DNA from: Candidatus Cloacimonadota bacterium
GTDB taxonomy: Bacteria > Cloacimonadota > Cloacimonadia > Cloacimonadales > TCS61
DNA: 30,303 bases
Direction of reading: 5' to 3'
NCBI GenBank assembly: GCA_023137125.1
Contig: JAGLPW010000012.1
Coordinates: forward strand, 1 to 30,303
The number at the start of each line of letters is the position of its first letter. The first letter of the stretch is position 1. Both the position numbers and the translations under genes were made by a program. This document shows positions 7,469-30,303 of the stretch, piece after piece. Under the pieces are notes generated by a model. The model did not search any database and was not told the origin of the DNA. It saw nothing but the letters and a program-made list of their open reading frames with translations.

Positions 7469-9370
7469 ATGGAGGAAAAAATGTTAAAAAATTTATTTGT
7501 GGTCTTATTAATTATGTGCTCATTGCTTCTGATGGCAGATGCATATGACCTGCGTAATGTGAATGGTGAGAATTATGTTCCCGGTATCAGGAATCAGGGT
7601 CCTTACGGAACTTGCTGGACCTTTGGGGCCTATGCATCTATGGAAGGAAATATGATGATTACAGGCGCTTGGACTGCTGCCGGGGAAACAGGAGAACCCA
7701 ATCTTGCAGAAGCACATCTAGATTGGTGGAACGGATTTAACCAACATAACAATGACGATACCGACCCACCTACAGGTGGTGGTTTGGAAGTTCATATGGG
7801 TGGAGATTACCGTGTTACAACTGCCTATCTTTCCCGTGTGGAAGGTGCAGTTCGTGAAATAGATGCACCTTACACCAATATTTCTTCACCTCCCGATAGA
7901 TGGTTAGCAAGTTATCACTATTTTTATCCAAGAGATGTGGAATGGTATAAATTGGAAGATGATCTTTCGAATATAGATGTTATTAAACAGGCAATTATTG
8001 ATTATGGAATTATGGGAACTTGCATATCATATAATGGTGCATTTATTTCAAATTACAATCACTATCAGCCACCAACTAATCCGGATGATCCAAACCATGC
8101 AGTATCTATTATTGGCTGGGATGATGCACATGCAACTCAAGCCCCATTACCAGGAGCATGGCTTGCGAGAAATAGTTGGGGCTCAAATTGGGGCAACAGT
8201 GGTTATTTCTGGATCTCCTACTATGATAAACACTCCTGCCGTAATATTGAGATGGGTGCAATTTCCTTTCAAAATGTAGAACCAATGGCATACGATAATG
8301 TTTATTATCACGATTATCATGGCTGGCGAGATACATTAGCAGTTGCTACCGAAGCGTTCAATGCTTTTGAAGCAACCGGAACTCAAGTTATAGAGGCTGT
8401 GAGTTTCTTTACTGCTGTAGATAACGTTGACTATATAATAAGGATATATGATGATTTTGATGGAACCGATCTTACAAACGAACTTTCTACGGTTTCGGGT
8501 GATTATGATCATGCAGGACTTCATACCGTAGACCTTACTACAAGTATTTCGTTAACAGCGGGAGAAGATTTCTATGTTTACTTATCTCTTTCATCTGGAG
8601 GTCATCCTTATGACAGAACTTCTGATGTACCAGTATTATTGGGAGCTGCTTATCGTACAATTGTAGAATCTTCTGCCAATCCTGAAGAAAGCTATTACAA
8701 AAATGGCGAAGACTGGCTTGATTTCTATGATTATGACGATCCATCCGGTTTTCAAAATACAGGAAATTTCTGCATAAAAGTTCTTTCTATAGGCGGTGTA
8801 CAACTTGATCCTCCTACAAATATAAACATTGATGATGAAACAGGGCTTCTCTCTTGGGATGCTCCTACCTCAAGAGAACTTACCGGATATAATGTTTATC
8901 TAGATGATATGAATACTGTTCTCACTTTCACAACAGATCTACAATGCTTGCTTACGGATTATGAAGAATTAGTGTCAGGGCAAGAATATGTAGCCGGTGT
9001 TTCTGCAGTTTATGATGATCCAGGTGAATCAACAATAATTACTATCAACTTTATATATGCTGGAACAGAAGCCGATGATGCTCTTGTTGATGCAACAATT
9101 CTTAATGGTAATTATCCTAATCCTTTCAATCCTGAAACTACAATTTCTTTTTCAGTAGTACAAACATCTTCGTTAGTGAATCTTGATATCTACAATTTAA
9201 AAGGTCAGAAGATAAAGACTCTGGTTAATGAAATATTGTCTGCAGGAAATCATTCGTATATTTGGAACGGAACAGATGAAAAAGGAAAATCTGTTGCTTC
9301 CGGAGTTTACCTGTACAAAATGAAAACAGGAAATTATGTTTTAACTAAAAAGATGATCCTTATGAAATAA
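7469..9370 (+). CDS. Secreted papain-family (C1) cysteine peptidase with Fn3-like module and T9SS-type C-terminal sorting domain
   Basis: Signal peptide. Catalytic Cys context NQGPYGTCWTFGA, His context NHAVSIIGWDD, Asn/Trp context NSWGSNWGNSGYFWISYY. Fn3-like LDPPTNINIDDETGLLSWDAP..LTGYNVYLDD. C-terminal about 80 aa (NYPNPFNPETTISF...GVYLYKMKTGNYVLTKKMILMK) matches the type A Por/T9SS sorting domain pattern. Confidence 0.85.
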   Translation: MEEKMLKNLFVVLLIMCSLLLMADAYDLRNVNGENYVPGIRNQGPYGTCWTFGAYASMEGNMMITGAWTAAGETGEPNLAEAHLDWWNGFNQHNNDDTDPPTGGGLEVHMGGDYRVTTAYLSRVEGAVREIDAPYTNISSPPDRWLASYHYFYPRDVEWYKLEDDLSNIDVIKQAIIDYGIMGTCISYNGAFISNYNHYQPPTNPDDPNHAVSIIGWDDAHATQAPLPGAWLARNSWGSNWGNSGYFWISYYDKHSCRNIEMGAISFQNVEPMAYDNVYYHDYHGWRDTLAVATEAFNAFEATGTQVIEAVSFFTAVDNVDYIIRIYDDFDGTDLTNELSTVSGDYDHAGLHTVDLTTSISLTAGEDFYVYLSLSSGGHPYDRTSDVPVLLGAAYRTIVESSANPEESYYKNGEDWLDFYDYDDPSGFQNTGNFCIKVLSIGGVQLDPPTNINIDDETGLLSWDAPTSRELTGYNVYLDDMNTVLTFTTDLQCLLTDYEELVSGQEYVAGVSAVYDDPGESTIITINFIYAGTEADDALVDATILNGNYPNPFNPETTISFSVVQTSSLVNLDIYNLKGQKIKTLVNEILSAGNHSYIWNGTDEKGKSVASGVYLYKMKTGNYVLTKKMILMK

Positions 9371-13943: not shown

Positions 13944-14660
13944 ATGAAGATCAAGATACCATCAATCATTAAAAAACAGATCATTGCCTTAACGGGATTT
14001 CTGTTAAGCGGGTTCGTTGCGGCACATTTGCTGGGAAATATAATGATATTTTTTGGACCTGACGCCTATAATAGTTATGCAAAAAAACTAATGAGCTTAG
14101 GCCCGATACTATATTTAATGGAAGCAGGGCTTATTATAATATTTTTGATCCACATGGGTTTTACAATAACCTTGGTTATAGAGAACAGAAAAGCCCGTCC
14201 AATAGCTTATAAGAAAACTCCCAGTACAAAAAAGCGATCAATTGCAACGCGAATAATGCCCTATACCGGCACTTTGATCTTTGCATTTGTGGTCTTGCAT
14301 CTTCTAGATTTCAAATACAATAATCACTATGGTATGGTGGCGGGAAAACTGCAAGAAGGTTTATACGCTCGTGTTTATGAATCATTTACAGATCCTCTGC
14401 ATTCCCTTTTATATATAATTGCAATTTGTGCAGTTTCGTTTCATCTTACTCATGCTATACAAAGTATGTTCCAAACGTTCGGTCTCAGCAGTGCAAAATC
14501 CCACCCGTATCTAGTGAAAATAAGTATTACAATTGGTGTTCTGATAGCTCTTATTTTTGGTTCACTTCCAATTTTTGTAATGGTGAAAGAGAAAGCTGCC
14601 CAGAAACCAAAAGTCAGTTTTTATGATACTTCAAAGGAGGTAATGCATAATGAAACTTAA
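13944..14660 (+). CDS. sdhC: Succinate dehydrogenase/fumarate reductase cytochrome b subunit (single-subunit, 5-TM b558 type)
   Basis: Five hydrophobic helices with conserved His in [22 protein letters not shown] and SFHLTHAIQ. Immediately precedes and overlaps the flavoprotein gene. Confidence 0.8.
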
Positions 14661-16563
14661 TTCCAATGTACCCAAAGGTAAATTGAAAGATAAATGGACG
14701 CAATATAAATTTGATATGAAACTTGTGAATCCGGCCAATAAAAGAAAATATAATATTATCGTTGTGGGAACGGGACTCGCCGGAGCTTCAGCTGCTGCAT
14801 CATATTCAGAACTTGGTTACAATGTAAAAGTATTTTGTATACAAGACAGCCCCAGACGAGCTCACAGTATTGCAGCTCAAGGCGGTATTAATGCTGCCAA
14901 AAATTATCCTAATGACGGCGATAGTATTTACAGATTATTTTATGATACAATAAAGGGGGGAGACTATCGTTCACGAGAAGCAAATGTATATAGATTAGCA
15001 GAAGTAAGCAATAATATTATCGACCAATGTGTGGCACAAGGAGTTCCTTTTGCTCGCGATTACGACGGCACACTTTCAAACCGATCTTTCGGTGGTGCAT
15101 TAGTTTCAAGAACATTTTATGCTCGTGGACAAACCGGCCAGCAACTTCATTTAGGAGCATGTGGAGCACTTATGAAAGAGGCTTCCAAACCGAATTTGGA
15201 AATATTCCCGCGACGTGAAATGATGGAATTGGTAATTCATGAAGGAAAAGCACGCGGGATCGTGGTTCGAAATTTGATAAACGGTGAATTGGAATCCTAT
15301 ACCGCAGACATGGTGGTTTTAGCATCGGGTGGATATGGAAATATTTATTTCCTTTCAACAAATGCAATGTCCACTAATTCTTCAGCAATATGGGCAGCAC
15401 ACAAAAAAGGTGCTTTCTTTGCTAATCCCTGTTTCGTTCAAATTCATCCCACATGTATGCCTGTGCATGGTGAGTATCAATCTAAACTTACTCTTATGAG
15501 CGAAAGTCTGCGAAATGACGGACGTGTTTGGGTTCCCCAAAAGAAAGGTGACAAACGTCATCCCAACGATATTCCTGAAAACGAACGAGATTATTATTTG
15601 GAAAATAAATATCCAACCTTTGGAAATCTTGTTCCCAGAGACGTAGCATCCAGAAATGCAAAAGAGCAATGCGATCTTGGTAAGGGAGTTGGCAATACAG
15701 GGCTTGCGGTTTATCTGGATTTCAAAGAAGCTACGAAGAGAATTGGTTTGGAAGCAATAAAAGCAAAATATGGAAATCTGTTTGATATGTATAAACAGAT
15801 CACCGGAAAAGATCCGTACTCCGAGCCGATGATGATCTTCCCGGCTATTCATTACACTATGGGCGGTTTGTGGGTAGATTATAATCTGATGAGTAATCTT
15901 CCCGGTCTTTTTGTGCTGGGAGAAGCTAATTTCTCTGATCATGGAGCAAATCGTTTGGGAGCCAGTGCGTTGATGCAGGGTCTTGCAGACGGCTATTTTG
16001 TGGCTCCTTATACTGCAGGAAACTACTTGGCTCAAGTAAATAACAACGAACTTACAACTGATCACGAAGTATTCCAAGAAGCAGAAAAAGCAGCAAAAGA
16101 TAAAATAGAAAAACTTTTAGCAATAAAAGGGAATCGAACTGTCGATGATTTCCATAAAGAATTGGGGAAACTACTTTGGGATAATTGCGGGATAGCTCGC
16201 AACGAAACCGACTTAAAAAAAGCACTAAAAGAAATTCCAAGGATACGCGAGGAATTCTGGAAAAATGTATTGATTCCGGGAACTACAGACAGTTTCAACC
16301 AAACTTTGGAGCGTGCAATGCGAGTTGCAGATTTTCTGGAAATGGCGGAGCTTATGATCCATGATGCCTCGGACAGAAAAGAATCTTGCGGATGCCATTT
16401 GAGAGAAGAAAGTCAAACTGAAGAAGGCGAAGCTCTTCGTAAGGATAATGAATACAGTTATGTCTCTGCCTGGGAATTCAAAGGTGTAGGAAAAGAACCG
16501 GAGCTTCATAAAGAGGAGCTTACTTTTGAAGAAGTAGAACTTACCCAAAGGAGCTATAAATAA
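14650..16563 (+). CDS. sdhA: Succinate dehydrogenase/fumarate reductase flavoprotein subunit
   Basis: FAD fold [13 protein letters not shown], covalent-FAD His context [17 protein letters not shown] and [18 protein letters not shown] motifs. 637 aa. Confidence 0.95.
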
Positions 16564-17324
16564 TGAAAACTATAAATATTACAGTAAAAGTATGGCGCCA
16601 GGAAAATGCCGTTGCTAAGGGTCATTTTGAAGATTATAAATTAACTGAAATTGATACCGATATGTCGTTTTTGGAAATGCTGGATGTACTGAATGAAGGG
16701 CTTACACTTTCCGGGGAGTTACCTTTGGCTTTTGATAGTGATTGCCGCGAAGGAATATGTGGGATGTGTGGAGCTGTGGTAAATGGGGAACCACACGGTC
16801 CAGTAAAAGCGGTAACAATTTGCCAGCTTCATATGAGAAGTTTTACAGATGGTCAGACCCTTGTAATTGAATCCTGGCGTTCAAAAGCATTTCCTGTTAT
16901 AAAAGATATTGTTGTAGATCGTTCTGCTTTTGATAGAATTATGATGGCTGGTGGTTATATTTCCGTGAAAACCGGTACTACCACAGATGCAAATGCAAAT
17001 CTAATAACCAGTGATATTGCTGAAGAAGCAATGGATGCAGCGCAATGTATTGGCTGCGGAGCCTGCGTGGCTGCTTGTCCAAATGCTTCGGCAATGCTGT
17101 TTGTAGGAGCAAAAGTAAGCCATTTGTCTTTGCTTCCTCAAGGGAAAATAGAATGTGTGGAACGTGTTAGAAAAATGGTAACACAAATGGATAAAGAAGG
17201 TTTTGGTTCCTGTTCAAATGAATATGAATGTTCTGTTTCCTGCCCGAAAGAGATAAATATTTCGCATATTGCCAGAATGAACAGGAAGATGATAAAGGCT
17301 ACTATAAAATCTGTGGTAGGATAA
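16563..17324 (+). CDS. sdhB: Succinate dehydrogenase/fumarate reductase iron-sulfur subunit
   Basis: 2Fe-2S motif [10 protein letters not shown] plus Cys clusters [12 protein letters not shown] and [14 protein letters not shown] stop/start overlap with sdhA. Confidence 0.9.
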
Positions 17325-20429: not shown

Positions 20430-21374
20430 TTATCTTTTCTTATTTTCTTTTTTCCTGTGTTTTAGCCAATACTTAATTGTAACTCGTCTCCATTTGCTTC
20501 TTATTTTATAAAAATCCTGCCAGTAAATTTCTTTAAATCCATTTGATGCTTTTTCAAATAGTTTATCTTTAACTTTGATCGTATATCTATTAGGACCTTC
20601 TGTAAGTTTACCAAATGATATTGCAAATTGAGGGCAATGATGCATACAACGTAAACAATGTAAACAAGCGAAATCATCGACTATTTTTATATTATCATTC
20701 ATCTTTATTAGATTACTTTCAGGACAATTTTTTGCACACAATCCACAAACATTACATTTTTCTCGGTCAATTTCCAATTTGGGATATTTTGTTCGCTCTA
20801 TATCTTTTACGATCTTCAATCTGAGAGAATCTAAGAAATTACCACGATGTTTTATTCTGAAATCTTTGTTTTGATATTTAAAAGAATTGTCTATGATTTC
20901 ATTGGTAAATTGATCAAGTTTATCAGTTATATTATCCTCGAAAAACATTACAGAACTATATTCATAACTATCAGAAGATTTCATCGAAGCAATTCCATTT
21001 GAAGGAGATTTAAAACTTTCTTTTGCAATTAATCGAAATGCCATTTTTTCTAATTTTTGTGCGAAATTATGTAAACTATCTGCTTCAAACCTTGTATATG
21101 AGCAGTATAAGAAAAATGGAGTAACTTCCTTTTTTCCTTTGAATATTGGAAATATATTTTCCATTATATGGGGATATGTAAATTTATAAACAGGAAAGCC
21201 AATTCCAACGATTTTGTTTTTAAGATCGAGCTTTTTTATTTTATCTAAAGATTCGATAGAAATGAGATCAACTTTGTGATGATCTTTCTCTAAACGCTTT
21301 TGTATCTCTTCGCTAATTAATTTTGTATTTCCGGTTCCGGAAAAATATAATAAAACAAATTCCATAAATTTCAA
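20430..21374 (-). CDS. Flavodoxin-like domain fused to 2x[4Fe-4S] ferredoxin domain (EFR1-like architecture)
   Basis: N-terminal LLYFSGTGNTKLISEEI (flavodoxin phosphate loop). C-terminal CNVCGLCAKNCP and CLHCLRCMHHCP. Same architecture as 27459..28274. Confidence 0.8.
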   Translation of the reverse strand: MKFMEFVLLYFSGTGNTKLISEEIQKRLEKDHHKVDLISIESLDKIKKLDLKNKIVGIGFPVYKFTYPHIMENIFPIFKGKKEVTPFFLYCSYTRFEADSLHNFAQKLEKMAFRLIAKESFKSPSNGIASMKSSDSYEYSSVMFFEDNITDKLDQFTNEIIDNSFKYQNKDFRIKHRGNFLDSLRLKIVKDIERTKYPKLEIDREKCNVCGLCAKNCPESNLIKMNDNIKIVDDFACLHCLRCMHHCPQFAISFGKLTEGPNRYTIKVKDKLFEKASNGFKEIYWQDFYKIRSKWRRVTIKYWLKHRKKENKKR

Positions 21375-21397
21375 AATTCCTTTAATAGTTCATTTAT

Positions 21398-21904
21398 TTA
21401 TTGGTTAATGTTATTGGAAGAACTCTCTACGATCTTACCTGTTGATTTATCGATGATCTCGTAGGAAATTGGAAAAGGATCGGATCTTCTTTTCATAAAC
21501 TTAATTGCATAAGATCTAGCATAATTCTTCGCCATTTCTACAGTTTCCCATTCATATTTACCAGAAAATGTTCTTTCTTCCTTATTAACCATAAACTGTT
21601 TTGTACAAAAACCAGGAAGACCAGAGAAGAATGGGATTGTTAATTTCGTTCGTTTAATAATAATTTCGGGGGAGATTTTAGGAGAATGAAATATTATCTT
21701 AAAAATTGCATTTCCAGATTTTGGTTCCCCGCTTTTTGATAAAATATCAATTTCAAGGAAAATTCTATTTTTATTCGAATCTTTTAATAGAATTTCCTTC
21801 CCAATATTTTTCCTTGGAAATTGAATTCTTCTCATTGTTTTTAAATGTGAATATCGCATAATAGAATATAATGGATTGTACTTTATCACATTCATTTTTT
21901 TCAC
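21398..21904 (-). CDS. Hypothetical protein; C-terminal half resembles a YdhR/ABM-type alpha+beta barrel
   Basis: The ORF sits between tetR (6-nt gap) and the flavodoxin-ferredoxin gene (23-nt gap). PGFCTKQFMVN....FSGKYEWETVEMAKNYARSY is reminiscent of the YdhR pattern (GL..K.W....G.Y.W.....A..Y). Weak assignment. Confidence 0.4.
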   Translation of the reverse strand: MKKMNVIKYNPLYSIMRYSHLKTMRRIQFPRKNIGKEILLKDSNKNRIFLEIDILSKSGEPKSGNAIFKIIFHSPKISPEIIIKRTKLTIPFFSGLPGFCTKQFMVNKEERTFSGKYEWETVEMAKNYARSYAIKFMKRRSDPFPISYEIIDKSTGKIVESSSNNINQ

Positions 21905-21910
21905 CTATTC

Positions 21911-22531
21911 TTATTCTCTCTTTTGTTGTAGTGCGTTGTGAACGAATTTCTTGATAAAATTTTCTTGTTCATCAAAGAAATGCTGAATTTCTTCTTGAGA
22001 GAATTGTGTTATCTCCATTATCAATGGCTTTGCAATAAAAGGAAAAATGCACATTGAAATAATGTTTATGAGCAAATGATTGGGATTGATTTTTTTTATC
22101 GTTCCTTTTTCCATTTCTAAATGCAATTCTTCAAAAATTTCATCAAAGAATTTCACTTTCATCGAATTAGTTTCCATATTCTTTTGGATGAAAGCCAGAT
22201 TATTTTCAATTTCATTCAAGATGAATTTTATGTTTTGTGTATTTGTTTTTATAAAATCTAAATATTTTTCAATTATCACATCTATCTTCTCTATAATGGG
22301 CATATTAGAATTTACAACTTTGTCGAATGAGATAAATAAATTCTTGAAACTATTTAACAAGACTACTTCAAAGAGTTCTTGTTTGGAACTGAAATAGTAA
22401 TGCAGTGCAGCTTTATTTACATTTGCGAGATTTGCAATTTCCTGCATTCGAGCACCATTAAACCCCTTATTATAGAATATTTCTGTCGCTACTGTAAGAA
22501 TTTTGTCTTTTGTTTTCAGCTTTTCTCCCAT
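21911..22531 (-). CDS. TetR/AcrR family transcriptional regulator
   Basis: N-terminal HTH ILTVATEIFYNKGFNGARMQEIANLANVNKAALHYYFSSKQELFEVV. AAAGGAGAA RBS. Confidence 0.9.
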   Translation of the reverse strand: MGEKLKTKDKILTVATEIFYNKGFNGARMQEIANLANVNKAALHYYFSSKQELFEVVLLNSFKNLFISFDKVVNSNMPIIEKIDVIIEKYLDFIKTNTQNIKFILNEIENNLAFIQKNMETNSMKVKFFDEIFEELHLEMEKGTIKKINPNHLLINIISMCIFPFIAKPLIMEITQFSQEEIQHFFDEQENFIKKFVHNALQQKRE

Positions 22532-22546
22532 TATAAGTTCTCCTTT

Positions 22547-22561
22547 TTAACCATTTGGTTA
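22547..22561. promoter_or_regulatory. Candidate TetR operator O1 (inverted repeat TTAACCA-tt-TGGTTA)
   Basis: 7-bp arms with a 2-nt spacer, 16 nt upstream of the tetR ATG and just upstream of its RBS. A near-identical copy lies 52 nt away. Confidence 0.55.
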
Positions 22562-22598
22562 GATTTCTTATTGTAGTGATATTCTGTCAAATAATATT

Positions 22599-22628
22599 TT
22601 AACCATTTGGTTAAATCGATTGGTTAAA
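22599..22628. promoter_or_regulatory. Candidate TetR operator O2 (TTAACCA-tt-TGGTTAA) plus an extra TTGGTTAAA half-site
   Basis: Full palindrome at 22599-22614 and a further half-site at 22620-22628. TTGACA and TACAAT hexamers (tetR sense strand) lie between O1 and O2. Confidence 0.5.
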
Positions 22629-22685: not shown

Positions 22686-22745
22686 CTAAACATCTTCTAA
22701 TAATTTCTTTAATGGTTTTGTCATCTGCGAACTCATCTGATTATT
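22686..22745 (-). pseudogene. 3'-terminal remnant (19 codons + stop) of a paralogue of the 23723..25105 gene
   Basis: The minus strand reads NNQMSSQMTKPLKKLLEDV*, against NNQMSSQMVKPLKKLLEKI* at the end of the 23723..25105 gene. The 24 nt at 22722-22745 are identical to 23759-23782. The remainder differs mostly at synonymous positions. An in-frame TGA sits immediately upstream of the remnant. Confidence 0.65.
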
Positions 22746-22979: not shown

Positions 22980-23683
22980 TTAGCACTCCCATACCAAAAG
23001 AGGTTAAAATGAAACGAAAATCTTACACATATCAAGTCCAATCTACCTTAGAAGCTTCCTGTGAAGAGGTATGGACACAGGTATTTCAAATGGAAGGGGT
23101 GAATGCTGAACTTTCACCGTGGATGAAAATGACTTATCCATTAGAGATGAATCGATTCGATCCTGAAATGACTCCTATTGGAAAGCTTGTTTTTCGTAGC
23201 ACCATATTAGTATTTGGGCTAATCCCAATAGATTACTATAATTTGTCTTTTGTCAAAATTGATTCTCCCACTCAATTTCATGAGCAATCAAGCTCAATAG
23301 GATTCAAAAAATGGACGCATATCCGTACACTGGAAACCGTAGAGAGAGGTTGCAGATTGACTGACAAGGTGGAATATGAACCCCGTATCCCCATATTAGG
23401 AGGTGCGTTACATCCTGTTTTTTTGGGATTATTTAAACATCGTCAAAAATACTTGAGAAAAAAGTTTGGTTATTTGAACGAACCAGGCGATACTGAAATT
23501 TGAATGTTCTATCGTAAAAAATGTTAAACAATATATTCTCTTCCGAACTTATAGGTGCTAACAAAAGGATGAACGCGGACCCAAAAAGGCTTGGCTTCGA
23601 GTAAATCTGTCATAAGGGTCAAGCATTCGCTATTTTAAAGGGTACCACAACCTATCGGCGTTTTTGGGCCGGTTATCCATACG
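22980..23683 (+). mobile_element. Candidate integron-type gene cassette (SRPBCC ORF + attC-like site)
   Basis: The heptamer GTTAGCA at 22979-22985 is the exact reverse complement of TGCTAAC (23556-23562) at the left end of the downstream folded repeat. That repeat ends in GTTATCC (23683-23689). One compact ORF starts 29 nt after the putative G|TT boundary. It is the only plus-strand gene in 17.3-30.3 kb and is visibly GC-richer. Confidence 0.35.
23009..23503 (+). CDS. SRPBCC (START/Bet v 1-like) ligand-binding superfamily protein
   Basis: 164 aa. The N-terminal pattern V.STLEAS.EEVW..V....GVN.EL.PWMKM, the central W.H.R.LE....GC.L.D.V.Y.P segment and the C-terminal F.HRQKYLRKKFG resemble SRPBCC/cyclase-dehydrase-like proteins. 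AAGAGG RBS. Confidence 0.6.
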   Translation: MKRKSYTYQVQSTLEASCEEVWTQVFQMEGVNAELSPWMKMTYPLEMNRFDPEMTPIGKLVFRSTILVFGLIPIDYYNLSFVKIDSPTQFHEQSSSIGFKKWTHIRTLETVERGCRLTDKVEYEPRIPILGGALHPVFLGLFKHRQKYLRKKFGYLNEPGDTEI

Positions 23684-23722: not shown

Positions 23723-25105
23723 TTAAATCTTCTCCAACAACTTCTTCAGCGGTTTCACCATCTGCGAACTCATCTGATTATTGTAAATCTCCTTTCGTAT
23801 CTTTGGGATTTTGATGAGTTGATATAAAATAAAATTCACCATTTTTATTTTAAATTTTGTATTGTAAGATTTAAAAATCCCCAGCTTCTTAAAAGCTTTA
23901 TAATCAGCAACAAAAGGAAAGCGAAGCGGTCCGTATATATCATCGCGGAAAACTTTCATTCCACCCACACCGAGGAAATTATCTTCTTTCTTCAGTTTTT
24001 GATCTGCATAGCGGATTGTCTTTTGGGCAGTTGCGGAAATGATATTATCCAATTCTGCTGAATCTTTGTATTCATCAGTAACAAAATCAACCAGGTTTCC
24101 TCTTTGAATTTGCGCCCACGCCTCGAATATCTGCCTGATATTCGGAATTTGTTTCAGTGGTCCAGAAACAAGATAGACAAGTTGTTTACCGGTAAATACG
24201 GGAACATGATTGTTATAAAAGCTGCGATCTATGAACATCTTCCAACGAGCAGAAAAAAACCTGTCTTTGATCTTAGCAGCATAAACAATAATATCTGCTG
24301 TTTTAAGTTTGGAATCAAAGAATTTATTGTACTCATCTTTCCCTTCGTAAATGCAGGTATTGTCGTATCCGCAATGAATACAACCCAGGCATCCACCTTT
24401 AATATCTAGATCATGAATATTATATTCTTCGATTTCCTCACTGAAATTTGCTTTGAATTGTGCTGTCATTTTTGCAAGATTCCCTTCTGGATCAGTGCTG
24501 TCTGTTAGAAGTAATATCTTTTTTCCTCTTGTGGAAATCTTGTTTATAATTTCTTCTGGTTTGTATTGGAAATTAGAATATTTAAGAGGAGAATAATAAC
24601 GAATAACGGGCAGATCATTCTCGATTGCATTGAAGAAATTTTCTGCAAACAATAGAAGCTCATTCTGTCCTTCTTGGTTGGAAAGACTGCTCATACCGGC
24701 AGAGATAAATTCAGCATATTTCATGTTCAGATCTTCGCAGATCGCTCTCATATAATTGTGGGCAGTATGATCGTAAAAGTGAATGGATGTAGAAAGAACT
24801 GCTGTATATTTATTTTGGAATACACTTTGAACATTTCTTTCAGAAATCAGTTCGATAAATCGTTTGTATTGAGCCGCAACGAGAAACACATAAAGCGGAA
24901 ACGCCCAGATCACGGCATCTGCCGACTTAACTTTCTCTATAATGCCATTAAAAACTTTTTCATCTTTTTCTATTCGCTTGATTTGCTGCGAGATATTTTC
25001 AAATTCATATTCGTGATCTGGAAAGTTCTTTTGAATAAATTTTACGTAATGTAAAGTTACGCTTTCTTTACCTTTCGGGCTACCGTTTAAAACTATTATT
25101 TTCAT
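23723..25105 (-). CDS. Tandem FMN-reductase/flavodoxin-fold protein; second domain carries an iron-sulfur-flavoprotein (Isf)-type Cys motif
   Basis: Domain 1 is MKIIVLNGSPKGKESVT...AVIWAFPLYVF. Domain 2 is KKILLLTDS...GGCLGCIHCGYDNTCIY (CX2CX2CX5C)...ADIIVYAAKI. I place the start at 25105 (AGGAGA RBS 8 nt upstream, 11 nt after the upstream stop) rather than at the track's 25171, which would overlap the upstream gene. Confidence 0.8.
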   Translation of the reverse strand: MKIIVLNGSPKGKESVTLHYVKFIQKNFPDHEYEFENISQQIKRIEKDEKVFNGIIEKVKSADAVIWAFPLYVFLVAAQYKRFIELISERNVQSVFQNKYTAVLSTSIHFYDHTAHNYMRAICEDLNMKYAEFISAGMSSLSNQEGQNELLLFAENFFNAIENDLPVIRYYSPLKYSNFQYKPEEIINKISTRGKKILLLTDSTDPEGNLAKMTAQFKANFSEEIEEYNIHDLDIKGGCLGCIHCGYDNTCIYEGKDEYNKFFDSKLKTADIIVYAAKIKDRFFSARWKMFIDRSFYNNHVPVFTGKQLVYLVSGPLKQIPNIRQIFEAWAQIQRGNLVDFVTDEYKDSAELDNIISATAQKTIRYADQKLKKEDNFLGVGGMKVFRDDIYGPLRFPFVADYKAFKKLGIFKSYNTKFKIKMVNFILYQLIKIPKIRKEIYNNQMSSQMVKPLKKLLEKI

Positions 25106-25116
25106 TTTGTCTTCTC

Positions 25117-26862
25117 CTAAAATTTCGGTGCTTCCTTCAAATAAGATTTCTTTCCATCCAGAGTCTTCCAAAAATTATCTGCCTGACTTTGGAAAGTCTC
25201 TTTAGAAAAACCTATGTTAGTGATAGCCATCATCAGATCGACGTCAATCTTTCCTTCATTAACAATTTGTTTTCCAGCTGTTTCACAAATCTCAGCAATT
25301 TTATCTCTTCTCTTCTTATAAACCGGATATACAATAGATTCAGCGGCGGGAAGAAAAAATTCTCCCATCAACGAAGTTTTTTCCATATGACTACTGAAAC
25401 AGCGGAAAGAGTATTTCAAACCATCAAAATTATGTTCCACTTCCGGAAATCCTGATGCGCTGAAAACTACAAAACCTTGTCCTTTATCTTCTTCGTAGCG
25501 GTGCGGATGCTGGGTTTGACCATTTTTTATAAGCATATAGGGTTTCATATTCGGTAAAAGTCTGTCTAAGAAATTCTTCATAATTCCCGTTACATTGAAT
25601 ATGTATAATGGAGAAGAATAAATTACCAGATCTGCTTCCCGAAGTTTGATTCTTAATTCAGTCATATCATCTTTATAAATGCATTCTCCTGGAGTTTGCG
25701 TCCAACATTGATAACAACCGGAACAGGGATTTATCTTTTTGTTCTTTAGTTTAATGAATTCAATTTCTGCTCCAGCTTCCTGCAAACCTTTGCAAAAGTT
25801 ATTAACCATAAAAGTGGTTTTACTCAATTTTTCGCTTCGTGGTCCACCATCTAAAACAATCACTTTTTTTATTCTTTTAGGTTCAAATGTTTTATACTCG
25901 AGAGTTGTATTTACAGGTTGTTTTATTTCCGGTGCAGGTTGATCATTTTCAGGTGAAAAGAGAGAACCGAGATTCAGCAAAATGGAAGCATCACCTTCCA
26001 CAGAATATTCTTTATTCATAAAAGCAGCATCACCGGAAACTTCATTATTAGAAATTTTCAACCATAATTCCGAATTTGAAATAATTGTTGTTTTAGGATT
26101 TTCAGCAATTCCTTCCGTGTAAGTGCACTCTTTATTTTTTATTTGAAGATAACCGTTTGTCGGCTCTTTTCCCGAAAGTTTAAATTGAATCAATTCATCT
26201 AAACCTTCTGCTTTTTTGGCATTCAAACCATACGGCATTGCCTGAAAAAGTTTCTTGATTGAAGTGAAGTGTAATTGCTCTCCTTTCACTTTTTGCATCA
26301 AGATTTTCGGAAGTTTCAATGTTAACGGAATTCCGATAATTACCTGCAATAAAATCGGAACAACAGTTGAAGCAATCATTTGAATTCCGCTATCGCTTGA
26401 ATATTGTACTTTGGTCAAAACAATTGCAACAGCAAAAAGAAATACCCAAATATAATTGATAATTAGATTTATCTTTAAGAATTGCTGACCTTCTGTAATT
26501 GCTTTCGGGTAATCTTTTACTGAAAACTCAAAAGTAAAAGGTTTCATCTTGAAGAGTGGTGGGAAAGCAGCGACAATGAACAATCCGAGATACAATCCCA
26601 CGATGATATTATGGAGATAAATTTCTCCCAAAAGTGGGAATACTAAAACCGAAATTCCACCGAGAACTGCAACTCCGGTGAGTCCAAACATAAAGTAAGT
26701 TGAGATCTTCATTTTCATTGCCAACAGCAAATTCAATATCAAAATAATATTGATTATCAGCACAAACGGTTTCATCGCTTCCAAGCTGTGCATACTTGCT
26801 TCCGATAAAACATTTAAAGCAATTACACCGGCGAACGGTAAGTTTTTGATTATAGCTTTCAC
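25117..26862 (-). CDS. Fusion protein: about 6-TM membrane domain + SCP2 lipid-binding domain + Isf-like FMN-reductase-fold domain
   Basis: About six hydrophobic helices in residues 1-190. SCP2 pattern ELIQFKLSG....GYLQIKN.ECTYTEG......TIISNSELWLKI.....SGDAAFMNKEYSVEGDASILLNLGSLF. Then KKVIVLDGGPRSEKLSKT...INPCSGCYQCWTQTPGECIY (CX2CX2CX7C)...ADLVIYSSPLY. GTG start overlaps the upstream stop (GTGA). Confidence 0.75.
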   Translation of the reverse strand: MKAIIKNLPFAGVIALNVLSEASMHSLEAMKPFVLIINIILILNLLLAMKMKISTYFMFGLTGVAVLGGISVLVFPLLGEIYLHNIIVGLYLGLFIVAAFPPLFKMKPFTFEFSVKDYPKAITEGQQFLKINLIINYIWVFLFAVAIVLTKVQYSSDSGIQMIASTVVPILLQVIIGIPLTLKLPKILMQKVKGEQLHFTSIKKLFQAMPYGLNAKKAEGLDELIQFKLSGKEPTNGYLQIKNKECTYTEGIAENPKTTIISNSELWLKISNNEVSGDAAFMNKEYSVEGDASILLNLGSLFSPENDQPAPEIKQPVNTTLEYKTFEPKRIKKVIVLDGGPRSEKLSKTTFMVNNFCKGLQEAGAEIEFIKLKNKKINPCSGCYQCWTQTPGECIYKDDMTELRIKLREADLVIYSSPLYIFNVTGIMKNFLDRLLPNMKPYMLIKNGQTQHPHRYEEDKGQGFVVFSASGFPEVEHNFDGLKYSFRCFSSHMEKTSLMGEFFLPAAESIVYPVYKKRRDKIAEICETAGKQIVNEGKIDVDLMMAITNIGFSKETFQSQADNFWKTLDGKKSYLKEAPKF

Positions 26863-27443
26863 TCTTTAGTTCCAACCTTGTAAGCTTTTTCTAACCATTG
26901 CTTTCTCTGTTTCTTGGAAGACGTTCTAACAGAACCGAAATAATGTTTCCCTACAAATTTCATTCCAGTAAAAGTGATAATATCTTTCATCATTTTTCCA
27001 CCCGGATCACCGACAATTAAATTCATATAAAATGGCGGGGAATCCATTGTAGAAAGAACCCTTGTCGTTCTGCCGGTTAGTAGTTTATCCCATTTGGGGA
27101 TTGATCCTTTTGATTCAAGATACTTAAATGCAAATCCGGGTTCCCAGATTCTTTCAATAAATAGTTTTAAAATTGCCGGTGGAGTTGCCCACCATGTAGG
27201 ATATGTAAAAGTTAGATGATCTGCCCAAGAAATAAGTTCTTGAGCATTTTGCAGATCTGAGGTTAATTCAGGGCTTGGATTGTGTCCATTTTTTAGAAAT
27301 CCCTCTAAATCCAATTTTCTTAAATCTATAGCTTTAATTTCATTTCCCGATCTCTTTGCTCCTGTAATATACTTGTATGTTAGTGCATTACAAAAACTAT
27401 CTTCTCTGGGATGAGCTTTGATTACTAATATTTTCTTCATCAA
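26859..27443 (-). CDS. NAD(P)H dehydrogenase (quinone)-type flavoprotein (Flavodoxin_2 / NQO-MdaB-KefF-like)
   Basis: MMKKILVIKAHPREDSFCNAL at the N-terminus and ADHLTFTYPTWWATPPAILKLFIERIW. Both are hallmark segments of the Flavodoxin_2 family. AGGAGA RBS. Confidence 0.85.
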   Translation of the reverse strand: MMKKILVIKAHPREDSFCNALTYKYITGAKRSGNEIKAIDLRKLDLEGFLKNGHNPSPELTSDLQNAQELISWADHLTFTYPTWWATPPAILKLFIERIWEPGFAFKYLESKGSIPKWDKLLTGRTTRVLSTMDSPPFYMNLIVGDPGGKMMKDIITFTGMKFVGKHYFGSVRTSSKKQRKQWLEKAYKVGTKE

Positions 27444-27458
27444 ATTCTCCTGATATTT

Positions 27459-28274
27459 TTAGTTTAAAATATTTCTTTTTAATTCATTATAGAAGGAAAT
27501 GTTCAATCTTCTGTTATCTTTCATTTTATCGGAAAAAATTATGGCGTTCTGTGGACAGTTATGAATACATTTAAGACAGAACTCACAATTATGCGGATCG
27601 AAAGCAGGAATTATTTCTCTACTTTCCCAACAATTTCTAGGACAGTTATTTACGCAAATATTGCAATTAATACATCTCTCTTTGATAATATGCATCCTGC
27701 TTTTGTATTTCTTATAAGATAACTCTCCAAAATACAAAAGGATATTATTAAGCGGAACATACCATTTATAAGCTGGAATTCTCAATTTAGCTTTAGAAGA
27801 ATTTAAGGTTTTGGATATTACATTAACTGCTTTCAGGATCTTTGCATTGATCTTTTTCTCATATTGGAAAATTCTTGAGCTTAATTTTGGAAACAGTAAT
27901 GCTCCATCGCTTGCCGGTCCGATGAACTGAAAATAATTAATAGTTACTACGTTTTTTTTATCTAGTTTTTTAATAAGAATACGCAGAGTATTTCCAGAGT
28001 ATAAAGCACAAGTTGTGAACACAAGCGCTTTTACTTGTTTTTGGAAAAACGGCATTCTATCCACAAATTCTTTCATTGATAGTGAAGGTTGGCAACTATA
28101 AGTAGGGAAGCCAAAGATCAGAAGATCATAATTCTCTATTTGTTGATAATCGAAAGAGCTGCTGATCTGAGAGATGTCAATTTCACAAGTTTCAGATAAT
28201 CTCTCAGATAAAACTTCTGAGATCAGTTTTGTGCTTCCAGAACCTGAATGATACAGAACAAGGACTTTTTTCAT
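27459..28274 (-). CDS. Flavodoxin-like domain fused to 2x[4Fe-4S] ferredoxin domain (EFR1-like architecture)
   Basis: KKVLVLYHSGSGSTKLISEVL at the N-terminus. CINCNICVNNCP and CEFCLKCIHNCP at the C-terminus. Paralogous in architecture to 20430..21374. Confidence 0.8.
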   Translation of the reverse strand: MKKVLVLYHSGSGSTKLISEVLSERLSETCEIDISQISSSFDYQQIENYDLLIFGFPTYSCQPSLSMKEFVDRMPFFQKQVKALVFTTCALYSGNTLRILIKKLDKKNVVTINYFQFIGPASDGALLFPKLSSRIFQYEKKINAKILKAVNVISKTLNSSKAKLRIPAYKWYVPLNNILLYFGELSYKKYKSRMHIIKERCINCNICVNNCPRNCWESREIIPAFDPHNCEFCLKCIHNCPQNAIIFSDKMKDNRRLNISFYNELKRNILN

Positions 28275-28297
28275 AGCAATTTCCTGCTTTTACCTCA

Positions 28298-28723
28298 CTA
28301 ATACTTTAGTTTAATTTCAAGTATCATATCTTCTTTCACTTCAAATTTCGCTTTATCAAATTTCGGCGGACCGAATGTTCCAAAAACATTATTAGAAAAT
28401 GCATAACCTTCTTTTGGAATACCTAGGAAATTTCTATCCATTTTTACATTGGAGTTTTCATCATGATAAATTGCGATTGCATATACACCCTCCGGGATAT
28501 TTTCAAAAGTGTGTGTAATTGACTCTTGGTCTGCCTGAATAAATGCTCCAGCAATAACATCACCTTTTGGATAGCTTTCTTCACCCTGGAATAACCCGAT
28601 AGAAATTTCACCTTCCAAATTTGTAATATCTGTTATGGTAACCTTTATCAAATATCCTGCTTCCTGTGCAAAGCATAAACTTGCTAATACAATTAAAATG
28701 ATCATTAAGAATAACTTTTTCAT
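28298..28723 (-). CDS. Secreted DUF2141 family protein
   Basis: Signal peptide. GEISIGLF......YPKGD, YAIAIYHDENSNVKMDRNFLGIPKEGYAFSNN and GPPKFDKAKFEV fit the DUF2141 pattern. Confidence 0.7.
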   Translation of the reverse strand: MKKLFLMIILIVLASLCFAQEAGYLIKVTITDITNLEGEISIGLFQGEESYPKGDVIAGAFIQADQESITHTFENIPEGVYAIAIYHDENSNVKMDRNFLGIPKEGYAFSNNVFGTFGPPKFDKAKFEVKEDMILEIKLKY

Positions 28724-28724
28724 T

Positions 28725-29243
28725 TTAAATTTCTCCTTTTATTTGCTTTAAATAATTAGTGTACCAACCCAAAATAAATGAATAATAACCAATTCCAAAT
28801 TCTAAAGTGGCCATTTCATATTTATTACAATTTTCTCTCACTTGAGGCACATCCCCTAAGTTATGCATCGTCTCAATATGCATTTTTAATTCTGATAAGT
28901 AGTTTTCCAATATCTGAATTTTTTCATCTTTAGAAACATATGGAAAGAAAAACAATCGCAATAACATATCGTTTTTTACTTTAGAAACTCCAACTTTGCT
29001 GTTCAACCATTCTTTAAAGGCAGATCTACCAGATTCTGTAATTGTATAGATTTTGTGCAATCGTCCATTTGATACTTCTTCTTCAGTTGTCACAAGTCCA
29101 TTTCTCTCCAACTTTTTAAATGCTGGATTTATGCTGCCCTGGCTTGTACTGAAGAAGAACTTTGTACTAAGTTCCATTTTTTTTCTGATATCATATCCAG
29201 TATATGGTTTTTGCATTAACATTCCGAGTAGAATTTTTTCCAT
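28725..29243 (-). CDS. PadR family transcriptional regulator
   Basis: LLGMLMQKPYTGYDIRKKME....SQGSINPAFKKLERNGLVTTEEEVSNGRLHKIYTITESGRSAFKEWL is a classic PadR winged helix. AAGGAGA RBS. Confidence 0.9.
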   Translation of the reverse strand: MEKILLGMLMQKPYTGYDIRKKMELSTKFFFSTSQGSINPAFKKLERNGLVTTEEEVSNGRLHKIYTITESGRSAFKEWLNSKVGVSKVKNDMLLRLFFFPYVSKDEKIQILENYLSELKMHIETMHNLGDVPQVRENCNKYEMATLEFGIGYYSFILGWYTNYLKQIKGEI

Positions 29244-29253
29244 ATTATCTCCT

Positions 29254-30303
29254 TTAAAATTTTATTCCGAAACCAACACTTAGTGAATTTATTATTTCAA
29301 ATTCTTTAGCAAATATCATGTCGCTGCGATAGGTTACAAATGGGAGGAATCCAATACTGTTATCCGGTTCCCAGCCAAGGTTGGTAGAATATCCAATTAC
29401 ATTTTCTTCATCTTCTCCATAGCCAAAATACCCGATAGTTCCCATACTTGCGTTAAACCAGTTAAATGGTTTGGCTTCTAAAATTACTCCGATAGATGTA
29501 TATGGATTTTCAGTGTTGAAATATGTTACATCAAGACCCCATTTTTTATCTCCGGCGTTAAGTAAAAACCTGCCGCCAATATGTGCAACAGTTTCTCCAT
29601 TTGTTGTTAGAATTCCATAACCGAAATGCGGACGGAACATATAATTACTCTTTTTAGCAGAGTATTCTATTTCCTCTCTACCTTGAATTTCTTCAAGTTT
29701 ATAACCGTGTTTCCCTTTGCCGATCTCCTCTAAAATATTTATCTCTACTATTGGAGTTTGTTTGTTATCAATTGAAAGAGTCATATTGCTCAAGTCATAC
29801 ACATTTGACCAAACTGTGGATTTCTGCGATACTTTATTTAAGATATTATGAATATCTGCGATGGAATAATTTTCACTTTTTTGTAATTCCTCGCTGGCAA
29901 TATCAAACCTTGTAAATGAGGTTTTGCTATCTTGCTCCAACGAAGGATCGGTGAGAAAATGATTTGTGATTATTTGATTCTTTTTCTCATCACGAATGAC
30001 GATAATTTCCTTATTAAAATATTCGACAACTGCCGATTCACCAGATATATCCACGATTTTGTAATGAACAACCGGATTTCCCAGGAACATTCCGAACAGA
30101 TTGGAGTATTTGGAGAATATCTTAATTGCTTCATCCACAGTAGAAGCATTCTGCAAAATCACTTCTACCATTTCAAGACTTTTTCTCATCGGTTTGAAAA
30201 GTGAAAGTGGTGTTTTGGTGTTTGGAACAGCAGCAATGCCGATGAACAGGCCTTTGTTATTAACTCCTTCGTAGGGCATTGTTTCACTAATTATTTCCAC
30301 AAT
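29254..30303 (-). CDS. Ntn-hydrolase (choloylglycine hydrolase/linear amide C-N hydrolase-like) domain fused to a C-terminal 8-strand beta-barrel; N-terminus outside window
   Basis: The ORF is open to the window edge. YEGVNNKGLFIGIAAVP, QIITNHF and STVWSNVYDLSNMTLSI resemble CBAH/Ntn-hydrolase segments. The last about 130 aa show eight amphipathic beta-strand-like segments rich in G/Y/F, ending in SVGFGIKF (terminal Phe, outer-membrane barrel signature). Confidence 0.6.
   Translation of the reverse strand: MVEIISETMPYEGVNNKGLFIGIAAVPNTKTPLSLFKPMRKSLEMVEVILQNASTVDEAIKIFSKYSNLFGMFLGNPVVHYKIVDISGESAVVEYFNKEIIVIRDEKKNQIITNHFLTDPSLEQDSKTSFTRFDIASEELQKSENYSIADIHNILNKVSQKSTVWSNVYDLSNMTLSIDNKQTPIVEINILEEIGKGKHGYKLEEIQGREEIEYSAKKSNYMFRPHFGYGILTTNGETVAHIGGRFLLNAGDKKWGLDVTYFNTENPYTSIGVILEAKPFNWFNASMGTIGYFGYGEDEENVIGYSTNLGWEPDNSIGFLPFVTYRSDMIFAKEFEIINSLSVGFGIKF

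Follow-up and report, generated by a model that had tools for sequence, protein, structure and literature searches.

A putative membrane-tethered SCP2-flavoprotein reductase in a PadR-type operon of variable gene content from Candidatus Cloacimonadota

Organization of the operon

The stretch of DNA analyzed here (positions 1 to 30,303 of the forward strand of contig JAGLPW010000012.1, assembly GCA_023137125.1, from a Candidatus Cloacimonadota bacterium; hereafter the window, 30,303 nucleotides in length) ends in seven minus-strand genes, g1 to g7 (Table 1), which are predicted to encode an Ntn-hydrolase with a C-terminal domain that resembles outer-membrane proteins (OMP-like; g1), a PadR-family regulator (g2), a secreted DUF2141 protein (g3), an EFR1-family protein of flavodoxin and ferredoxin domains (g4), an NQO/MdaB-type oxidoreductase (g5), a membrane flavoprotein with an SCP2 domain (g6) and a protein made of two FMN_red-type halves (g7). 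The original prediction, made from the window alone, had described them as one co-transcribed operon and as a candidate redox system for a lipophilic compound or quinone. A check of the open reading frames (ORFs) of the window found all seven as claimed, and Pfam and NCBIfam bore out the domain calls, apart from a beta-barrel in g1 for which there is no profile match.

The gaps between successive genes had been given as 10, 1, 23, 15, -4 and 11 nt, and all stand except that between g4 and g5: on account of the AGGAG 6 nt before it, the ATG at 27440 is the better start of g5, and the gap is better given as 18 nt. The GTG start of g6, which overlaps the end of g5, is backed by an alignment of homologs that begin with MK(F/A)IIK, and the ATG of g7 is preceded by AGGAG at a distance of 8 nt and is the point from which homologs align (residue 1). 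AGGAG-like ribosome-binding sites, claimed for five starts, were confirmed before g1, g2, g3, g5 and g7, those before g4 and g6 being weaker. Terminator-like matches in the region all lie inside coding sequence, and none was found in the intergenic gaps of the operon. With short or overlapping junctions, gaps in which no terminator was found and a conserved promoter/operator-like element ahead of the first gene, the proposal that all seven genes are on one transcript is upheld as the simplest reading. Scans of the whole window with Rfam (gathering thresholds) and for tRNA genes found nothing, which leaves no riboswitch or other RNA element to account for regulation. The first gene, g1, runs past the end of the window, and therefore the promoter region of the operon lies outside it; both were recovered from a 46,972-nt assembly of the same sequence that continues beyond the window (locus L001), in which the complete g1 gene occupies positions 7783-9021 and encodes 412 aa.

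Table 1. Coordinates of the seven genes, their junctions and other features of the window, with the basis of each assignment.
Feature	Position or length	Strand	Basis or remark
g1, 3' part (residues 65-412 of 412 aa)	29254..30303	minus	CBAH/AAT Ntn-hydrolase by Pfam
g1/g2 gap	10 nt	minus	read from sequence
g2, PadR-family regulator, long subfamily	28725..29243	minus	PF03551, 60.2 bits (cut-off 27)
g2/g3 gap	1 nt	minus	read from sequence
g3, secreted DUF2141 beta-sandwich protein	28298..28723	minus	PF09912, 115.6 bits (cut-off 24.4)
g3/g4 gap	23 nt	minus	read from sequence
g4, EFR1-family flavodoxin + 2x[4Fe-4S]	27459..28274	minus	NF038196, 115.8 bits (cut-off 75)
g4/g5 gap	18 nt	minus	g5 ATG at 27440; 15 nt with a TTG start
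g5, NQO/MdaB-type Flavodoxin_2 oxidoreductase, 193 aa from ATG	26859..27440	minus	PF02525, 111.6 bits (cut-off 27)
g5/g6 junction	-4 nt	minus	GTGA overlap
g6, core gene, 6-transmembrane + SCP2 + Isf/FLR-like FMN_red	25117..26862	minus	Pfam
g6 Cys motif C380-x2-C383-x2-C386-x7-C394	25681..25725	minus	Isf-type compact [4Fe-4S] motif
g6/g7 gap	11 nt	minus	g7 ATG at 25105
g7, 460 aa, two FMN_red-type halves	23723..25105	minus	PF03358, 78.2 bits (cut-off 24)
g7 Isf-type Cys motif C239-x2-C242-x2-C245-x5-C251	24353-24391	minus	second half of g7
59-nt direct repeat, copy in g7	23724-23782		78% identical to the next
59-nt direct repeat, downstream copy	22687-22745		relic of a g7-like 3' end
DUF8410 gene	23009-23503	opposite to operon	between the repeat copies
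20-nt boxes	22545-22564 and 22597-22616		probable TetR operators
TetR gene	21911-22531	minus	first of the block below
Block of TetR, 168-aa protein and 314-aa g4 paralog	20430-22531	minus	gaps of 6 and 23 nt
sdhCAB-type gene set	13944-17324		succinate dehydrogenase / fumarate reductase
Papain-like protease	7469-9370		lectin and T9SS sorting domains

The membrane SCP2-flavoprotein

The protein encoded by g6 has three parts: an N-terminal transmembrane (TM) domain of six predicted helices (residues 1-190, modeled with good confidence), an SCP2 domain (residues ~198-303; PF02036, 40.4 bits, cut-off 21.3) and an FMN_red domain (residues ~331-581; PF03358, 64.8 bits, cut-off 24). More than 260 full-length homologs were found. 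The cysteine motif of the flavoprotein part, CX2CX2CX7C, is of the compact type of the iron-sulfur flavoprotein Isf, is invariant in 22 sequences and aligns with the CTGCTAC...C stretch of the structure 7D38. Lysine and arginine residues in alternate loops of the TM domain number 12 inside versus 2 outside, and therefore both termini and the whole SCP2-flavoprotein part are predicted to be in the cytoplasm. Transmembrane electron transfer by the TM domain was considered and set aside, since the alignment of homologs contains no invariant histidine or cysteine in this domain.

The TM domain itself belongs to no recognized family: Foldseek with the model of g6 returned no match for it, and a Pfam scan of the domain from five homologs (E<=10) gave no consistent family. 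An exhaustive search found it in only 84 representative clusters, where it either stands alone or is combined with SCP2, FMN_red or both (the architectures being TM, TM-SCP2, TM-FMN_red, TM-SCP2-FMN_red and TM-SCP2-FMN_red-SCP2). The strongest argument that the TM, SCP2 and FMN_red parts work together is that the same three are repeatedly shuffled. The SCP2 domain matches PDB entries 3cnu and 3bn8 by sequence and, by Foldseek, archaeal SCP2 proteins, the SCP2 domain of UbiJ and the alkyl-chain-binding C-terminal domains of alkylsulfatases (TM-score relative to the target 0.6-0.68). By sequence the closest solved relative of the flavoprotein part is FLR (7D38; profile E=4e-16, single-sequence E=9e-13), followed by NQO2, and by fold its matches are azo- and quinone-reductases, NQO2 among them (TM-score relative to the target 0.5-0.6). 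The lipophilic substrate that had been proposed for the system is a reasonable inference for g6.

Divided and soluble versions were also encountered. Four loci from Anaerolineae and Aneurinibacillus (L067-L070) have a split g6: the gene after PadR encodes a soluble FMN_red protein, and next come between one and three separate genes for SCP2 or TM-SCP2 proteins. When plasmids were searched with g6 by tblastn, the only matches were soluble homologs of residues 333-565, annotated as flavodoxin family, on Clostridium megaplasmids and in uninformative context.

Conservation of g6 and variation of its neighbors

Scanning with an alignment of g6, one genome per species, yielded 67 other loci (68 with that of the window), which were searched with all window proteins by tblastn and in which the neighboring ORFs were clustered de novo. 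In most of these loci the protein shares 45-61% identity with full-length g6, and the hosts of the loci belong to more than ten phyla, including Cloacimonadota, Desulfobacterales, Syntrophales, Bacteroidales, Flavobacteriaceae, Fermentibacteria, Campylobacterota, Izemoplasma, Vallitaleaceae (with Firmicutes also listed), Leptospirae-type spirochaetes, Chloroflexi and four Asgard lineages; the names of the metagenome-assembled genomes (MAGs) hint at habitats such as marine sediments and hydrothermal sites. Across these loci g6 appears to be the constant element, widely and apparently horizontally spread in a patchy distribution like that left by gene transfer. The regulator next to it varies: PadR adjoins g6 in 15 loci, a membrane LytTR protein in eight (Bacteroidota), Crp/Fnr in six (Campylobacterota), TetR in four (Izemoplasma and others) and Lrp/AsnC in three (Asgard archaea). 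A regulator family that changes with lineage is the pattern of a putatively inducible accessory gene.

Two envelope proteins recur beside g6. A DUF2141 gene adjoins the g6 homolog in 37 of the 68 loci, on the same strand and usually directly upstream. In a comparison restricted to loci flanked on each side by 1.5 kb or more, DUF2141 lies directly upstream of g6 in 21 of 26 diderm loci versus none of ten monoderm or archaeal loci (Fisher p=1.2e-5), which is the pattern expected if DUF2141 is a periplasmic accessory of the envelope. The C-terminal domain of g1 adjoins g6 in seven of the 68 loci: as part of a full g1 in Sulfurospirillum and in the contig of the window, and as a stand-alone protein of ~160 aa with a signal peptide in the other five (L022, L045, L046, L051, L062), whose hosts are Fermentibacteria and Arcobacteraceae.

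The remaining redox proteins are distributed quite differently from g6. Beside it, a homolog of g4 is found only in two close relatives among the Cloacimonadota (L007 and L008), a homolog of g7 in a single Bacteroidales contig, and a homolog of g5 in none of the 67 other loci. Operons consisting only of g1, PadR, DUF2141 and g6, with no g4, occur in the contig P0004 and in locus L078 (g6 87% and 70% identical, respectively). The operon of L007 (g6 87% identical), located between the same M1 peptidase and transglutaminase genes that flank the operon of the window, has the order PadR-DUF2141-FMN_bind-EFR1-g6. In L073, the PadR gene is part of an operon with the order 68aa-PadR-56aa-DUF2461-SDR-GNAT-143aa-g7 ortholog (77% identical) that has the same putative operator and contains neither g6 nor DUF2141. 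All seven genes together are present only in the strain of the window (window and L001). The original prediction had treated the seven genes as one conserved system, and for g4, g5 and g7, three of the four redox proteins, the co-occurrence in related genomes that this entails does not hold; the proposed link between envelope proteins and flavoproteins survives only for g6, the rest having accrued under one regulator in this strain. To speak of a seven-gene system is to read too much into a composite peculiar to one strain; what deserves attention is g6 together with its envelope partners.

The FMN_bind gene of L007 (8690-9148), between DUF2141 and EFR1, has no counterpart in the window; it encodes a lipoprotein-like protein of 152 aa with a flavinylation-type motif (DIITGATNS), a sign that this form of the operon may include a flavin component outside the cytosol.

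The assertion that no characterized pathway matches the gene set agrees with the Pfam, NCBIfam and literature searches, the last of which found no paper, within the library searched, on a module of SCP2/Isf-type flavoprotein with DUF2141 and PadR. What is new is the membrane- and SCP2-fused Fe-S flavoprotein with DUF2141 and OMP-like partners; the superfamily of each protein was already known, and PadR-controlled reductase operons are a familiar theme.

The PadR regulator and a candidate operator

The g2 protein has, in addition to its PadR domain, a C-terminal Vir_act_alpha_C domain (PF10400, 25.4 bits, cut-off 22.4), and its orthologs in L007 and L073 are 85% and 83% identical, respectively. 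The 243-nt region upstream of g1 in L001 carries TTGACGATATATGTCGATACGAAATATGTCGTC, in which an element of the form TTGACGA(T/A)ATATGTCG-N7-ATATGTCG overlaps a promoter-like TTGACG hexamer. The same element is present in L002 (the same strain from a different sample), directly upstream of PadR in L007, which has no g1, and upstream of the orthologous PadR operons of L073 and L074; a partial copy precedes the g1 ortholog of L078, and no further copy was found elsewhere in the window. Since the element is found before the first gene in each locus, it marks the beginning of the transcription unit, whichever gene comes first, and its position supports the assignment of g1 as the first gene of a putative PadR-controlled operon.

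The envelope proteins g1 and g3

The full-length g1 protein matches CBAH (PF02275, 43.1 bits, cut-off 20.4) and also AAT; against the NCBIfam model for C45 acyltransferases/hydrolases (NF040521) the window-truncated protein scores 48.7 bits, below the cut-off of 85. Its signal peptide ends in ALNA at the predicted cleavage site, and the next residue, Cys21, corresponds to position 1 in the CBAH profile; a Cys at the cleavage site is conserved in the L078 ortholog (61% identical). Cleavage of the signal peptide would therefore expose the Ntn nucleophile, and g1 is predicted to be a secreted Cys-Ntn amidohydrolase of the CBAH/C45-like type. Reading LNAC as a lipobox, which would make g1 a lipoprotein, is less likely, as lipidation would block the alpha-amino group of the nucleophile. 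The only full-length homolog outside Cloacimonadota (Sulfurospirillum, L048, 2803-4014) has serine in place of Cys21.

The C-terminal domain of g1 (~125 aa) is strongly conserved (RPxxGxG, WFNxSxG, NLGWEP and a terminal Phe). It had been called an outer-membrane-type beta-barrel, to which the indirect signs of alternating hydrophobicity and of a stand-alone secreted form ending in Phe lend some weight; on the other side, a Pfam scan of the domain and of the stand-alone homolog gave nothing at E<=0.1.

The AF2 model of the DUF2141 protein g3 (pLDDT 89) consists of a signal-like N-terminal helix followed by a beta-sandwich, and the family has an invariant loop, H-D-x-N-x-N-x3-D ... E ... S-N. 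Adjacency to the carotenoid hydroxylase gene crtG in many Sphingomonadales is the only context of DUF2141 found in the literature (PMC5989583).

The additional redox flavoproteins g4, g5 and g7

The g4 protein covers positions 1-240 of the 242 in the NF038196 profile, in agreement with its Flavodoxin and Fer4 matches in Pfam, and is a candidate low-potential electron donor that was probably added in this lineage. Judged by its match to Pfam, g5 is predicted to be an NQO/MdaB-like member of the Flavodoxin_2 superfamily; its score against NF007280 of NCBIfam is 63.5 bits (cut-off 162). The cysteine motif of g7, CX2CX2CX5C, is invariant in 16 sequences; a PDB sequence search with g7 found no match. 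The family of g7 is very large and tightly conserved (more than 3,800 matches, 53-56% identical) with hosts in Marinimicrobia, Dehalococcoidia, WOR-3 and Thermodesulfobacteriota, and its members occur as the last gene of another operon, which has the orthologous PadR (L073), in a PadR-g7 pair (L076) and alone (L075). Taken together, g4, g5 and g7 appear to be strain-level additions under one regulator.

The downstream side of g7 bears signs of change. A 59-nt direct repeat has one copy in g7 and another 1 kb past it, which is what remains of the 3' end of a further g7-like gene and adjoins the promoter of a TetR gene, just upstream of that promoter; the ~1 kb between the copies contains a DUF8410 gene on the opposite strand. 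Repeat and DUF8410 gene together indicate a recent insertion, replacement or rearrangement at this site.

Beyond the relic is a block of three genes that encode the TetR regulator, a 168-aa protein with a weak ydhR-like match and a 314-aa paralog of g4 (flavodoxin with 2x[4Fe-4S]), forming a second, separately regulated redox module, the whole of which is missing from L007. Directly upstream of its TetR gene are two near-identical 20-nt boxes, TTTTAACCATTTGGTTA(G/A)AT, 52 nt apart, each containing the palindrome AACCA-TT-TGGTT; they are probably TetR operators. Farther away, the window contains a gene for a papain-like protease and an sdhCAB-type gene set. The sdh genes are also ~4 kb from the PadR operon in L073, and therefore the operon occupies a conserved chromosomal neighborhood.

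Predicted function of the operon

Because related Cloacimonadota loci keep the PadR/operator anchor while the cargo differs, the reading that we favor, with a confidence that is about even, is a PadR stress or detoxification operon of variable cargo around a membrane-tethered lipophile reductase, g6, and not a fixed seven-step pathway. Its core module would comprise a local one-component regulator (PadR here), the secreted DUF2141 protein, sometimes a small secreted OMP-like protein, and g6; in the strain of the window the OMP-like part would be fused to a periplasmic Cys-Ntn amidohydrolase as g1. A lipophilic, membrane-partitioning compound (putatively a quinone, an enone or another lipophilic electrophile) would arrive at the envelope and, in diderms, be handled in the outer membrane and periplasm by the OMP-like domain and DUF2141, and in Cloacimonadota and Sulfurospirillum g1 may first strip an N-acyl or amide group from it. 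The compound, or the damage that it causes, would free PadR from the operator that overlaps the promoter. With substrate flow in the predicted direction, g6 would draw the compound from the inner membrane by way of its TM/SCP2 portion and reduce it at FMN with electrons that enter through the [4Fe-4S] cluster. For the strain of the window, the likely low-potential donor is g4, and g5 and g7 may be extra soluble reductases recruited under the same regulator.

A more specific reading, which we put forward tentatively and consider somewhat unlikely, is that g6, DUF2141 and the OMP-like protein constitute an undescribed trans-envelope device that captures and reduces a lipophilic compound, passing it from an outer-membrane protein for entry or retention and a periplasmic carrier to a portal formed by the six TM helices and SCP2, and on to the cytoplasmic Fe-S flavoprotein. 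Such a device would have been transferred horizontally among anaerobes of more than ten phyla, with g6 acting alone in monoderms and Asgard archaea and with the sensor rewired lineage by lineage.

Several points weigh against the favored reading. The chemistry is wholly inferred, the substrate, the cofactors and the transcript being putative. The AF2 model of g6 is moderate (pLDDT 70.8) and poor in the flavoprotein domain, and because of this the geometry between SCP2 and the flavin is not readable from it. The acidic and asparagine-rich loop of DUF2141 is more suggestive of a metal site than of a lipid pocket, and there is no informative structural match for this protein: the matches of its confident model in Foldseek were all generic sandwiches of the Ig, transthyretin or CBM-like kinds (best E=9e-3), and a PDB sequence search found no match. 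DUF2141 is missing from five of the 26 well-flanked diderm loci, and OMP-like is a putative label for the C-terminal domain of g1. In L002, g1 (1602-2647) lacks residues 30-127 of the Ntn-hydrolase domain and the remainder of the operon is 99-100% identical, so the hydrolase may be dispensable, as a matter of population variation, or the assembly may be faulty. The candidate operator ATATGTCG-N7-ATATGTCG is a direct repeat, in contrast to the inverted repeats of characterized PadR operators.

Four other explanations were weighed. The first, which we consider unlikely, is that there is no system beyond g1, g2, g3 and g6, so that g4, g5 and g7 landed in a recombination-prone spot and share the transcript by accident. 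The syntenic operons of close relatives are without g4, g5 and g7 (except that L007 and L008 keep g4), the relic of a second g7-like 3' end 1 kb downstream shows local rearrangement, and g7 homologs sit in unrelated contexts; but because an operon with the orthologous PadR and operator in L073 contains a g7 ortholog without g6, g7 appears to be a genuine member of the PadR regulon in this lineage. Moreover, g4 recurs beside g6 in two relatives, and the functions of the inserted genes are not randomly drawn, since all of them encode redox flavoproteins.

Defense against oxidative stress is distinctly unlikely as the role of the operon. The Isf of Methanosarcina reduces O2 and H2O2, and g6 and g7 could in like manner protect strict anaerobes from oxygen, the TM/SCP2 portion steering g6 to lipid hydroperoxides or keeping membrane antioxidants reduced. 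Both proteins are of the FMN_red family with the invariant compact cysteine motif typical of Isf, the hosts are anaerobes as judged by their taxonomic assignments, and an oxidant carried in lipid would be a fitting target for a membrane-tethered protein that has a lipid-binding domain. The local regulators, however, are of ligand-sensing types (PadR, TetR, membrane LytTR, Lrp) and not of the PerR, OxyR or Rex types, the clustered ORFs of the g6 neighborhoods include no recurring rubrerythrin, peroxiredoxin or SOR genes, and it is hard to see what the periplasmic DUF2141 protein and its OMP-like partner would contribute to the removal of oxygen species.

It is improbable that g6 reduces or saturates a membrane lipid or isoprenoid of the cell itself, with DUF2141 and the OMP-like protein placing the product in the outer membrane. 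Modification of endogenous lipids would accord with the adjacency of DUF2141 to crtG in Sphingomonadales (PMC5989583), with the Lnt-like acyltransferase, fatty-aldehyde-type ALDH and SDR genes that recur beside g6 in a few loci, and with the C=C ene-reductase activity of the closest solved relative of the flavoprotein domain. An accessory response nevertheless fits better than core lipid biosynthesis because g6 is patchily spread over bacteria and archaea with fundamentally different membrane lipids, in a pattern like that of horizontal transfer, is adjoined by a dedicated local regulator of changing family, and varies in presence or absence among close relatives.

A role in energy metabolism, with g6 as a membrane-bound ferredoxin/flavodoxin:quinone oxidoreductase that feeds the menaquinone pool, might be read from its membrane anchor, its Fe-S flavoprotein domain, the neighboring EFR1 protein, the sdhCAB-type complex (fumarate reductase) on the same contig and the binding of quinone intermediates by SCP2 proteins such as UbiJ (a resemblance backed by the Foldseek match 6h6p), but is highly improbable given a TM domain with no invariant histidine or cysteine for redox cofactors, an accessory gene that lies beside xenobiotic-type regulators and is missing from some close relatives, and occurrence in MAGs of Izemoplasma and Asgard archaea, which are thought to be largely fermentative.

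Changing regulators of ligand-sensing type and the patchy distribution thus favor an inducible accessory function for g6, as in the variable-cargo operon proposed above. If g6 is a membrane-tethered Fe-S flavoprotein reductase guided by a lipid-binding domain, it would represent a new architecture in the FMN_red/Isf superfamily and would place DUF2141 and the small OMP-like protein, both orphan families, in a functional context for the first time. Its spread over anaerobic phyla and Asgard archaea under differing regulators suggests a common lipophilic stressor or substrate. The target for experiments is narrowed from seven genes to g6, one regulator/operator pair and the DUF2141 partner, and the locus illustrates how an operon of orderly appearance can have been put together only recently from cargo genes under one regulator.

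Comparison with known systems

Among systems already described, the periplasmic acylases of the CBAH family (penicillin V and AHL acylases, MEROPS C59) and the C45 acyltransferases resemble g1, which matches CBAH and AAT and has a nucleophile Cys predicted to be exposed by cleavage of the signal peptide; unlike them, g1 is fused to the OMP-like C-terminal domain of ~125 aa, and its Sulfurospirillum homolog has Ser at the nucleophile position. PadR stress operons such as those of the phenolic acid response (PadR-PadC) and LmrR-LmrCD share with the operon of the window a PadR-family repressor gene inside the operon and cargo of detoxification type, and a conserved repeat, the candidate operator, overlaps a promoter-like hexamer upstream of g1. 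They differ in that the cargo of the window operon consists of reductases and envelope proteins instead of a decarboxylase or an efflux pump and in that its candidate operator is a direct repeat.

Enzymes of the NQO, MdaB and AzoR types are well known for detoxifying quinones and dyes by two-electron reduction under the control of stress regulators. This group (NQO1, NQO2, MdaB, KefF and AzoR of the Flavodoxin_2 family) is matched over the full length by g5, which scores below the equivalog cut-offs of NCBIfam, and the model of g6 superposes on azoreductases and NQO2; we know of no enzyme of this kind that is embedded in the membrane, carries an SCP2 fusion or has envelope proteins as partners.

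The best solved sequence match to the flavoprotein domain of g6 is FLR of Flavonifractor plautii (7D38, deposited as 'Cd1'), an FMN-dependent flavone ene-reductase with a hydrophobic planar substrate (PMC7862272). The similarity extends over ~90-107 residues that include the Cys-rich stretch: only residues 3-110 (profile) or 18-110 (single sequence) of the 310 aa of FLR align with g6, the C-terminal substrate-binding subdomains and the 'tail' being unmatched, and FLR is a soluble protein without the SCP2 and TM parts of g6.

Isf of Methanosarcina thermophila and its relatives has the same combination of an FMN_red domain and a compact [4Fe-4S] motif (CX2CX2CX4-7C) as residues ~331-581 of g6 and the second half of g7, and by analogy ferredoxin-type electron input would be expected for both. 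Unlike Isf, which is small and soluble, g6 is fused to six TM helices and SCP2, g7 is a tandem of FMN_red-type halves, and both, with cofactors predicted from their motifs, belong to accessory operons linked to a regulator.

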